Source: Amoebidium appalachense (lineage: Eukaryota > Protista > Ichthyosporea). From it: a stretch of DNA of 64,000 nucleotides. Made by a program: the position numbers and the translations under genes. Positions 41,994 through 52,220 of the stretch are shown in pieces; the first letter of the stretch is position 1, and every line of letters begins with the position of its first letter. The notes beneath the pieces are model-generated. The model searched no databases, was not told where the DNA came from, and saw only the letters and a list, made by a program, of their open reading frames with translations. The stretch covers positions 1,118,231 through 1,182,230 of the forward strand of contig CAVNZM010000009.1 of NCBI GenBank assembly GCA_963693365.1. The letters are read 5' to 3'.

Positions 41994-44900
41994 TCAGTAG
42001 TTGGAGGCATCGCCCAGTACGTGGAGGTGGCGGCAGCTGACTCCTTTGTTGCACCGCCCCTGGTTGAAAAAGTGGCACTGTGCGTGTGTGTGTGTGTGTG
42101 TGTGTGTGTGTGTGTGTGTGCGCGCGCGCGCGCGCGTGTGTGTGTGTGTGTGTGTGTGTGTGTGTGTGCGTGTGTATGCGTGTGTGTGCGCGCGTGCGCG
42201 ATCCTGACAGTGAGTCGTAAGGCATGAAAGCGCGCTGTAGCACCCAACAATAGAACATGAGAATACTAACCGCCACAAACTCTCCCACGTTCTCGCTTTT
42301 AACATCCATTGTTAATCTTATACCCCCCCCCCCCTCCCCCTCACACCACCACCACTACCACCAATCCACCCACCATTATTCACGTCTCGTTCTATTAATT
42401 TGCCCCTCAGGGAGGAATCCTCCAAACACGCTCGCACATCATCATACAATACAGAGGGTAATTACCAAATTTAGGTGGTTTGTCCACAGAGATGCACACA
42501 TCCCCCCCCCCTCCCCCCCCCCCAAACACGACACACACACACACACACACACACACACACACACACACACACACACACACACACACACACACACACACAC
42601 AACCACCACCCACACATCCCTCACTGTACACTCACCTTAGCGTCCGCAAGCAGATATGAACGTCCCCAGGCACACAATCACAACTCAGCCCCCCTCCCCC
42701 TTCCTCCCCTTCCCCCCCCCCCCCCCCCCCCCTCTCTCTCTCTCTCGCTTTCCCTCCACCTGACCGTCTACAAACCCCATACACATTTCGTCCACATCAA
42801 CGCACAGCACGCACACCACAACCACATACACTCCCACACACCAAGGCAGACACACAGAGACACCCACAGAAAACACACACACACACACACGCGCGCCTCA
42901 CCCACCCGCCCATCCACCCACCCACCCACCCACCCACCCACACACGTACACACACACCTAAACACGCACGTTTACACAAGTACGCACCCCCCCCCCCCCC
43001 CCCCCCCCCACCACCACCACACACACACACACATCGCCACTCACCACCTTCTGTCCGCCAGTCCTCTGCTGTCCCCCATACTGTCCCATCTCCTTCCCAT
43101 AATCCCCCGTCATATTTCCACTCCCACCTCCATTCCCATATCTCGGCGCACTGTGTTCCCTCCTCCCAACACCACCACTCTGCCCCCCACCCATCCCATA
43201 CGATTGATAACCGCGATCGCTGTACCCTCCCTGATGCCGCGGCGGTTCGACTTGCCTAATAAGGTTATTCGATTGCCTGTTATGGTTATTCGAAGGTCCG
43301 TTCTGTGTGCTTTGATTGGGTTCGCCCTGTGCCTCGAGTAGATACAGAGCCGCCATTTCCACGTTATTGCCGCTTGCCGTTAGCGCCACCAAGACATCTT
43401 CCTCCGAAAATCCCATCTCACAGAGTGGCTGAACCAATGCCAATCGCGGATCGTCTAACCGGAGTCCCGTTGGCACGGCTGGTTTGAACACAAACGGCGC
43501 CGATGGGGCGGAAATTTTCGGCTCGTTGAAGGAATTGGTGGTAGGCGCAGGCCTGGGTGCGGCCGCGGGTGTAGCGGGTTTTGGGGTAGAGGAGGATGGG
43601 CCGGTGGTGGTGGTGGCGGGTGGGCGGGTCTGGGGACGTGACGTCGACGGTTGGGAGGGTTGGGTAGGAGGTTTGGTGGGGGGTTTTTGCTGATTTGCAG
43701 GGGGGTTTGAAGCGGTGGTAGTTTTTGCGACACCAGGTGTGGGTTGCGTTGTGCGTGTGGTAGGTGGGGGTGCGGGTTTGGCCGGTGTAGGGGTGGTGGT
43801 GGCGGGTGCAGCGGGTGTTTTCTTTGTCGGCGCTGTTGTAGTGTTGGTGTAGGTGTTTTTTGTCGCTGCCGGCGTAGAGGTGGTGGGCGCTTGAGGTTTA
43901 ATGGCGGAGGGAAGGGTGGTGGTTGCGCGAGTGGGTGGGTTTGTCTGGGGTGTTTCGGCTTGATTCCCCATGAGTGACGTTGATTGGGCGGGTGCTTTGG
44001 GAGCGGTAGTGGTTTTTGGCGCGGGTTTGTTCTCCCCCGTGTACCTGTTTGGTGCGGTGGTGTTGGTGTCTGTGTTCTGATTGGACGTGGTGGTGGTAGT
44101 GGTGGTGGTGGTGGGATTGGGAAAAGATGATTGGTTGCCAAAGGGGCCCCCGGCAAACATGTCTAGGGGGAGCATGGGCATGGGGAATCCGGCCGCCGCC
44201 AACAGGTTGAGTTGTTCTTGAAGAAGGAGGGGGTCGATGATGAGTGGCACCTGCCCGGGCATCAATCCCTGCATACCTTGCATACCTTGTATACCGGTCA
44301 TACCAGGCATACTCGGCATCCCTTGCATTCCTGGCATACCGGGCATACCAGCCATCACGCCGGGGAAACCAAACATGTTGGGAACGGTGAGGGGTGGTGG
44401 AGGGGGAACAGCGGCGCCGGCCAGATCATCCTCCTTGCCCTGTCGTGGGGGGGGTCTGGTTGGGTGTAGGGGGAACCATGAAGGGGCTCATTCCCGGTTG
44501 GCCGGCCATAAAAGGCAACCCCATGCCCATAAATGGGGGCGGCAGCATACCGGGCATACCCATTGGGGATGCCATATTTGGCATTGCGCCCATCCCACCG
44601 GGCATAAACATTGGCGGAATCATCGAGGGGGTGCTAGTCGGAACCGAGCCCATTGATTGGCCAATACCGCTGAGATCCGGCATTGCTTGCGTTTGATTGG
44701 TCGCCATCGATGAAGCGGGGTTTCCCATTGCGAAACTTGACGCGGGTTTCTCTGCCGACGTGTTGTTTGCAGAGGTAGGGAAAAACGTGTTTGTGTTGTC
44801 CTTCGTAGGGGTAGAGAGGGGAGAAAGAAACACGTCCCCATCATCCGCTTCCGTTAACCCCGCCACCATTCTCTCTTGCTCCTGTTCGTCTCCCCAATCC

Positions 44901-50900: not shown

Positions 50901-52220
50901 GGTGGGGGGGGGGGGGGGGGGGGGAGGAGGGGGAGGTGACCCGTAGAAGATCTAGGATGTCAATGTTCACGAAATCGTCATCATAGTCGCGCTCGCCATA
51001 TCTCGCCTCGGGCTCGGGTTCTGTCAGTTTCTTGTATGCAAATGAGATGCGCTGAAACATTTGCTGTGGGAAAATGAGAGTATGTTGGTTAGAAAAAGAA
51101 GAAAAGCAACAAAACTTTGACGCTAATGCATTCAGGCAAGCGCTGTGCCGTTAGCACGGTTGTATTCTACTGATACACGTGCCGCTAGCAGCACCAGCAT
51201 ATTCGTGCGATTGCCTGGGGCATGTCTGTGTGTCAGTGCTGGTGCTTGTGTACACATGCGCACGGGAGCCAAGCATCCTGCATGTGCTGTGCTGCATTTG
51301 TGTATGTGTGCAAACGGGCGTGCGTGCATGTTGAAAAGAGGGTAAGGGGTGTAAGGGCGGGACCAAATGTCAGCCGCATGCCTGTGTGTTGAAGCGTGGT
51401 TGCCCAAAGGAAAGTGCGCGAACATGTGTGTGGGTGTGCAGGGGGAGGGGCGGGGAGGGGGGGTGGGTATGTGTGTGTGTATGTATGCACCCGCGTGCAT
51501 GCACGCATGTGCACGCTTTTGTGTGTACGTGTCTGGAGGGGAGGGCAGGGGGGGAAGGGCGGGGGAGAGGGGGGGGGGGGGGGGGGGGAGGGGCTCCGTG
51601 CCATGTGGTCGCTCGTTGATACAATCTATAAAGGCCCACGGAAACACCAAAGATCACAACCACATCCAAGTCTTAAACCAAGGACGTAAAACAAGACCCA
51701 ACTTAGAAGGTTTTGCCCGACTTAAAAGGTTTTGGAGCATGAATGCAGAAAACTCTGCAAAGCAGGTACGGAGAGATGTACCGTTGCTTCGGGACTGTTG
51801 TCATTTTTGTCTGGATGCCACTTGAGGGCAAGCTTCTTGTACTGTGACCTGTGTAAAGGGAGTCGAAGATTAGGATCTTCAGAAAGTCTACAAAGAGCCA
51901 GGCGACGTAAATAAGTGTGCAGGAAGAATAGTTTTCGCATATATAAAGTGAAAGATTAATTGGATCTTACAGTGCAAAGGTTTCATAAGCTCGCTTGCTG
52001 CCAACCTTTCGCAAAAAAAAGGGGAACCTAGAAGCAGATCAAACATCACCGAAGCTCAGAAATAATAACAACAGGCCAGAAACTCGAAGGTGAACAGGGT
52101 TCCAGCAAACGGGATTGAGTGGCGGAGTGGGATATAGGGAGTCGCATACTTGAGCACTGCCTCGTCCGCTCCCGCATCCACCTCGAGAATGCGGTAGCAC
52201 TCTTCCCTTGTCAGCTTCAT
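41994..52220 (-). CDS. Multidomain protein: J (DnaJ) domain - acidic region - 2 ankyrin repeats - GW/WG-rich IDR - M/P/G-rich region - UBA - CCCH zinc finger; ~1343 aa after correcting a 1-nt frameshift
   Basis: Exons 52220-52150, 51848-51782, 51063-50941, 49771-49506, 48758-48667, 48160-48054, 47258-47109, 46117-43045, 42077-41994. J domain CYRILEV...[13 protein letters not shown]...FQRISFAY. Ankyrin GNTVLHYAA and [46 protein letters not shown]-x7-C-x5-C-x3-H ([19 protein letters not shown]). The large exon is 3073 nt (3n+1), with the frame break at the G8 run 44447-44454. Confidence 0.82.

Follow-up and report, generated by a model that had tools for sequence, protein, structure and literature searches.

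Does a protein of the GW182 kind exist outside animals? The question is raised by a gene in a 64,000-nucleotide stretch of the ichthyosporean Amoebidium appalachense (contig CAVNZM010000009.1, positions 1,118,231 to 1,182,230 of the forward strand), referred to below as the window. The gene fills positions 41994 to 52220 of the minus strand and encodes an N-terminal J domain, ankyrin-like repeats, an array of tryptophan (Trp) residues in GW/WG context, a UBA domain and a CCCH finger. GW182, the adaptor through which microRNAs silence genes, has been described as animal-specific, a view also stated in an initial annotation of the locus, and as arising with multicellularity; it was not found in fungi, plants or choanoflagellates by a screen based on human and fly BLAST queries and RRM and UBA profiles (PMC4615383). 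A screen with these queries would miss the present protein. We find that the gene probably shares ancestry with the N-terminal, Argonaute-binding half of GW182, as judged from sequence comparison, and binding of Argonaute by its Trp array is predicted with moderate confidence by analogy with known hooks. Taken together, we lean slightly toward a non-animal holozoan relative of this half of GW182, a predicted scaffold that would dock on Argonaute and bring Hsp70. The component estimates, among which a non-animal source is rated very likely, are not independent of one another, and confidence in the combination was set separately.

The case for common ancestry starts from the first 200 amino acids (aa) of the protein, which were compared by eye with the Nematostella GW182 row (A7SDW4) of Table S1 in PMC4615383, where the first 400 residues of each GW182 are displayed. 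Scores were computed by hand using BLOSUM62 with gap costs of 11/1, rather than from a tool alignment. A cnidarian GW182 had been named as comparator beforehand, in the initial annotation, which gave such proteins an N-terminal J domain. That statement is borne out in print: a DnaJ domain, the role of which is unexplained, is present in every cnidarian GW182 homologue examined (PMC3840309), and Nematostella GW182 has a J domain (aa 1-61), GW repeats and a UBA domain, followed by a C-terminal effector domain (PMC5314787). Two sets of controls were used: 77 distinct J proteins of viruses and prokaryotes, drawn from 100 loci after removal of those with fewer than 90 aa following the J domain, and 5000 shuffles of the protein's own post-J region.

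The segment that stands out is aa 161-200, which aligns with Nematostella GW182 aa 130-167 at a hand score of 58. For this segment the best of the control J proteins scores 27, and none of the 5000 shuffles reaches 58 (shuffle maximum 55). Its core (aa 166-180) is an ungapped run of 15 columns, LE-x4-RR-x4-PVP, with 7 identities and a score of 41. The whole post-J region scores approximately 80 against Nematostella, a value reached by 5 of the 5000 shuffles and above the control maximum of 55. On the DNA, exon 4 (49506-49771) carries a G/F-like linker, an acidic run (aa 117-160) and the first half of the shared segment, and exon 5 (48667-48773) carries the second half. By these scores, the protein resembles cnidarian-type GW182 beyond the J domain. 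The J domain itself (aa 5-66, HPD intact) is N-terminal as in cnidarian GW182, its identity to the latter not being diagnostic, and is spread over exon 1 (52150-52220; helix I and the start of helix II), exon 2 (51782-51848; the remainder of helix II and the HPD motif) and exon 3 (50941-51063; helix III and the start of the G/F-like linker). The exon 2 piece exceeds the Pfam DnaJ cutoff at 29.7 bits, and exon 3 has no Pfam or PDB match on its own.

Further motifs follow in an order common to both proteins: N-terminal J domain, acidic run, shared segment, A-x-P-x-P-x(1-2)-KKQ, a K/E-rich region, (D/E)IPPR, GW repeats and UBA. The likeness of the KKQ motif is weak and of low complexity. A poly-Lys/poly-Glu stretch (aa 353-385; 45854-45952) matches the K/E-rich region of animal GW182 in position, and could alternatively be a nuclear localisation signal. 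The motif DIPPRM (aa 491-496; 45521-45538) resembles the N-terminal E(I/V)PPRF motif of GW182/TNRC6, which reads EIPPRF in Nematostella; the form EVPPRF is seen in Hydra, amphioxus, a centipede and amniotes. The terminal F is replaced here by M. The tight form of this pattern occurred in 4 of 20,000 whole-protein shuffles and a loose form in 211 of 20,000. IPPR-like motifs occur also in other RNA-granule proteins, and hence are not exclusive to GW182. The E(I/V)PPRF motif was taken from the GW182 table, in which PPRF is found at 239 places (10 of these were viewed), and is not named as defining in the consulted parts of the papers.

The same table bears on the age of the J module. By eye, the Branchiostoma floridae GW182 model (PMC4615383 Table S1 row 448) begins with a J remnant that retains HPD, followed by an acidic run and by the KKQ motif shared with Nematostella and Trichoplax; the Trichoplax row has this motif without a J domain. 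The Branchiostoma remnant conflicts with both papers that describe the cnidarian J domain, which state that bilaterian homologues, or all homologues outside cnidarians, lack it. The combination seen in Branchiostoma implies that the J module is not a cnidarian oddity, and suggests that it is old within animals.

A single long exon, exon 8 (43045-46117; aa 298-1321), encodes in succession P/T-rich and K/E-rich regions, the GW array, M/P/G-rich and T/P-rich regions, the UBA domain and a G/Q/N/Y tail. The array (44894-45679) has the composition that the initial annotation gave it: 12 Trp codons lie between 45679 and 44896, and 10 of them have a Gly neighbour. Ten or more such residues arose in 1 of 100,000 shuffles of aa 441-710, for which the shuffle mean was 2.9; over the tighter region aa 585-710, 8 of 10 Trp residues adjoin Gly, which was matched by 260 of 100,000 shuffles. 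Successive Trp residues of the core (aa 587-666) are separated by 9, 9, 15, 11, 9, 11, 8 and 7 residues, and spacings of 7-15 residues suit the paired Trp pockets of Argonaute. Compared with the PDB, the GW region gave chance matches only.

Descent from a common ancestor with GW182 need not entail a partnership with Argonaute. The Trp motifs may instead serve CCR4-NOT, through the CNOT1/CNOT9 pockets, or condensates, in which case the protein would be a chaperone/ubiquitin adaptor on messenger ribonucleoprotein granules that contacts RNA through its CCCH finger. We consider this rather unlikely. W-motifs of the G/S/T-W type do recruit CCR4-NOT and are functionally separate from Argonaute-binding motifs (PMC5314787). 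The protein has 17 Trp residues in total, none after aa 705, where most GW182 rows seen have 26-65, and its CCCH finger finds its best PDB matches in CPSF30 (top) and tristetraprolin. Pfam also assigns no Ago_hook to it, but the Pfam column lacks Ago_hook for the Amphimedon, Trichoplax and Hydra GW182 rows as well, and the array follows the IPPR motif and precedes the UBA domain, which is where GW182 has its own Argonaute-binding region. Argonaute binding by the array is the function that we favour.

All features named in the initial annotation lie where it placed them, and the recognised domains differ in how well they hold up. The UBA domain (aa 1188-1227; 43327-43446) exceeds the Pfam cutoff, with an E of 1.9e-8. 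The CCCH finger, encoded together with the stop codon by exon 9 (41994-42077), is single, has the spacing C-x7-C-x5-C-x3-H and falls slightly below the Pfam cutoff (E 5e-5 to 6e-4). The tail before it, which had been called Gly/Tyr/Arg-rich, contains a single RG dipeptide. The HPD J domain stands, and the two ankyrin repeats proposed to follow it are weak: repeat 1 in exon 6 (48054-48160) has Pfam Ank E values of 0.013-0.18 and repeat 2 in exon 7 (47109-47258) an Ank_2 E of 0.008, all for exon pieces and all below cutoff. A home-made ankyrin profile (E 0.014) aligned the first repeat alone, and blastp of the repeats against one stored ankyrin protein gave no match. By its intact HPD and lack of the zinc-finger and peptide-binding domains of classes A and B, the protein is a class C J-domain protein.

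The gene model on which these assignments depend was examined at the level of reads for exons 7-9. Translation begins at an ATG at 52220 and the stop codon ends at 41994, giving a product of 1348 aa without internal stop from 9 exons and 8 GT-AG introns, which are poly-G and CA-rich in a manner reminiscent of ichthyosporeans, once a single base is removed from a G8 run. This run (44447-44454) produces a frame change in exon 8 as assembled, past the GW region and ahead of the UBA domain. It has one base fewer in all four read runs, two of DNA type and two of RNA type, so the exon is continuous and the frameshift is a one-base assembly error. A 37-nucleotide intron across the break had been considered and was dropped, given that the reads show the assembly error instead. 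Automated annotation of the current assembly would, owing to the G8 insertion, split the gene so that the GW array and the UBA domain fall into separate parts. A separate T>G difference at 43807 appears in one X12 contig only, and is an allele or an error.

Runs X12 and X14, from one sample, were taken as RNA because their contigs skip introns, no run being recorded as RNA; DNA-type contigs, unlike these, continue into introns. Single contigs in both X12 and X14 join exon 7 to exon 8, and position 43045 to exon 9, and a loose end of RNA-type contigs matches exon 6 at its splice to exon 7, so that reads support 3 of the 8 splice junctions, although these are not listed in the joint table of the runs. 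For junctions 1 and 2 there is the way in which exons 1-3 tile the J-domain alignment without overlap, along with the GT donor and frame of exon 1. The basis for junctions 3 and 5 is reading frame and GT-AG borders, to which junction 4 adds the ungapped match to Nematostella GW182 across it; because the LE-x4-RR-x4-PVP core spans the exon 4/5 junction, it also supports the splice model.

Several points weigh against kinship with GW182. The silencing half is missing in its entirety. PAM2, RRM, Ago_hook and M_domain gave no Pfam match at E<=1, nor at E<=10 on 16 short pieces, and consensus PAM2 patterns are also absent from the protein. A search for RRM was negative both for the gene and for the last intron plus the region downstream (9 minus-strand frames), and RNA-type contigs splice straight to the CCCH exon. 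There is no Q-rich region after the UBA domain (at most 8 Q in any 50 aa), and no C-terminal W-motif, the last 638 aa, after aa 710, containing no Trp. This absence of PAM2, RRM and C-terminal Trp is as direct an observation as the gene itself, its domain order and its Trp array. The UBA domain and a GW/WG-rich region N-terminal to it, smaller than in most members, are the elements of the published GW182 definition that the protein has; it fails that definition for PAM2, RRM, the Q-rich region and the C-terminal W-motifs. The initial annotation was correct that RRM and a clean PAM2 are lacking, its term "effector" is not supported, and of its "relative or analogue" the former gains from the post-J similarity to Nematostella and the IPPR motif. 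A hydrophobic helix-like segment (aa 921-945; 44173-44247, minus strand) lies in the M/P/G-rich region. Its likeness by eye to the M domain of GW182, in the Ciona row, was discounted, as it has no Pfam match at E 10 and precedes the UBA domain.

No particular affinity of the UBA domain to that of GW182 was seen. The UBA of TNRC6C (2dkl) ranks last of 40 PDB matches with an E of 1.4, behind those of UBAP1, RAD23, USP13, Cbl and TDRD3, and a search of 1.84 billion representatives returned 83 matches, mostly RAD23, UBAC1, BRO1 and other multi-UBA types, with neither DnaJ nor TNRC6 families among the best five Pfam families displayed for them. The cnidarian UBA lies outside this comparison, since the table cells end at 400 aa. 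The comparison of J and UBA domains that the initial annotation had proposed was therefore uninformative, neither domain having a special affinity to GW182. The UBA result speaks for another alternative, in which an older eukaryotic class C J family (J domain, acidic run and helix) was fused to GW arrays separately here and in animals, making the protein a convergent Argonaute hook. GW arrays did arise repeatedly on unrelated proteins such as AIN-1/2 (PMC4615383), and neither ankyrin repeats nor CCCH fingers are listed as GW182 domains ("CCCH" has 0 matches in the table). Convergence requires, however, that the K/E stretch, IPPR motif, GW array and UBA domain were gained twice in the same order, and the tight IPPR pattern is rare in shuffles. 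We regard it as distinctly unlikely.

Other weaknesses concern the N-terminal comparison. The J domain is identical to that of Nematostella GW182 at 21 of 53 positions by eye, fewer than in the median control (23/53), and the score of the G/F-like block, 38, falls inside the control range (median 33, maximum 55); the 77 control J proteins ruled out both as evidence of homology. The Trichoplax and Branchiostoma rows score approximately 8 and 12 by hand against the shared segment, too low to count. Two Trp residues precede the IPPR motif, unlike in the visible 400 aa of Nematostella. Homology is based on one comparator sequence with segment ends picked after inspection, and the viral and prokaryotic control set contains no eukaryotic class C J proteins, a feature that also leaves room for the convergent origin discussed above. 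With a hand score against a single comparator and top UBA relatives of the RAD23, UBAP1, UBAC1 and BRO1 types, the likeness may be one of chance, the protein being an unrelated ubiquitin or trafficking co-chaperone, or the contig may come from an animal with a derived GW182 paralogue. Auxilin/Swa2 combines a J domain, a UBA domain and acidic Trp motifs. In auxilin-type proteins the J domain is C-terminal, whereas here it is N-terminal, and the scores of the shuffle and J-protein controls lie below the observed one.

The neighbouring genes bear on the possibility of an animal source. They encode a hexokinase, a fasciclin protein, a fidgetin-like AAA ATPase, PAP2, YhhN, a Kv channel and a pseudouridine synthase, as identified from 60 of 204 candidate frames scanned. 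In one hexokinase exon, animals score above plants and fungi; in another, yeast glucokinase comes first per domain, leaving a mixed lineage signal. Overall the hexokinase is about equally far from animals and fungi, and the nearest Atlas clusters of the PAP2 gene are dominated by arthropods and ascomycetes. The Kv channel has a pore approximately 43% identical to that of Kv3.1 by our own count and lacks the PVP gate, a motif typical of animal Shaker-type channels. Taken together, the neighbours are compatible with an opisthokont that is not an animal. Chance likeness or misplacement is, in our estimate, very unlikely. Lastly, no orthologue was found in the following searches, although their blanks do not show absence. 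The GW region gave none at E 1e-3 among 7980 candidates (proteins of 974-2780 aa); 17 candidates for exon 4 (207-660 aa), 52 for the UBA domain (892-2545 aa) and an Atlas query with the GW region were blank or uninformative; a metagenome scan gave one match, inside a bacterial tRNA-synthetase-like gene; and viral scans gave no orthologue.

The open-access literature yielded no paper joining GW182 to ichthyosporea, Sphaeroforma/unicellular or Capsaspora, and nothing on an ancestral or sponge TNRC6 with a J domain. [quoted passage not shown] The Microprocessor is known from ichthyosporeans, several of which possess Ago, Dicer, Drosha and Pasha (PMC6206976, a paper that mentions neither GW182 nor TNRC6).

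If the protein is the relative of GW182 that we favour, its parts suggest how it may work, by comparison with known families. Spaced Trp residues would enter the PIWI pockets of Argonaute, and the HPD motif would stimulate Hsp70 so that the Argonaute complex is loaded or remodelled, a role also proposed for the cnidarian J domain (PMC3840309) and shown for a free J protein of C. elegans (PMC11194074). The UBA domain may bind ubiquitin and the CCCH finger may touch RNA. Recruitment of CCR4-NOT, if any, would occur via the same central Trp array, and without PAM2 and C-terminal W-motifs no animal-style contact with PABP is predicted. It is tentative, and a little short of an even chance in our estimate, that the protein is a unicellular orthologue of GW182. 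Under that proposal the ancestor was an Hsp70-recruiting Argonaute scaffold comprising the J domain, post-J segment, IPPR, GW and UBA, to which animals added PAM2, W-motifs and RRM, and most bilaterians lost the J module. GW182, like Drosha and Pasha, would then be older than animals, whose own innovation would lie in linking it to deadenylation and PABP. A relative outside animals that has the Argonaute-binding half only would split the origin of GW182 into two steps and would provide an ancestral role for the cnidarian J domain, so far unexplained. It would also allow the origin of seed-based microRNA repression to be tested in a unicellular organism.

Several other features of the window were recorded. 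The pseudouridine synthase gene, of RluA type, stands head to head with the GW gene at a distance of approximately 1 kb (52220-53250). The voltage-gated K+ channel gene occupies ~37150-39850 on the plus strand; its closest PDB entries are Kv3/Kv2, and no T1 domain was found among the frames scanned. The fasciclin protein corresponds to an uninterrupted 536-codon frame at 8028-9635 (plus strand), which starts like a signal peptide, contains one fasciclin domain (Pfam E 1e-4) and lies in intron-rich surroundings. A 298-codon frame at 11215-12108 (minus strand) has no Pfam match. A dispersed repeat of approximately 200 bases, noticed from similar translations, appears to occur in at least 4 non-coding copies (~18670-18940, 33720-34100, 53780-54010 and 54790-55080) and is possibly a short mobile element.

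Among known systems, hooks outside the GW182 family include Tas3, CnjB and NERD, the last of which ends in a CCCH finger, and no WG/GW Argonaute-hook protein outside the family is known to us to possess the post-J segment or a J domain. Like the present protein, C. elegans AIN-1/2 and plant NRPE1 (PMC4615383) have, by description, a disordered G/S/T/D/E-rich region with spaced GW/WG motifs. The HPD J domain has a counterpart in C. elegans DNJ-12/DNAJA1, which acts on Argonaute (PMC11194074); DNJ-12 is a free class A J protein, in contrast to the present fusion of a J domain with a putative Argonaute hook. Bilaterian GW182 (TNRC6A-C, Gawky) shares the K/E-rich N-terminal stretch, a PPRF-type motif, the GW array and the UBA domain, but is described without a J domain, has the M domain, PAM2 and RRM, and shows no specific UBA similarity. 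Nematostella GW182 binds Nematostella Argonaute and not the human protein, and its effector domain recruits CCR4-NOT through 11 W-motifs (PMC5314787). With 39 Trp residues and this effector domain, which also includes PAM2 and RRM, it differs from the present protein, which has 17 Trp and none of these, and which in turn carries an ankyrin-like insert, approximately 480 aa rich in M/P/G and T/P ahead of the UBA domain, and the CCCH finger. From the N-terminal J domain and acidic run through LE-x4-RR-x4-PVP, KKQ, the K/E-rich region, IPPR and the GW repeats to the UBA domain, the two proteins are built alike.

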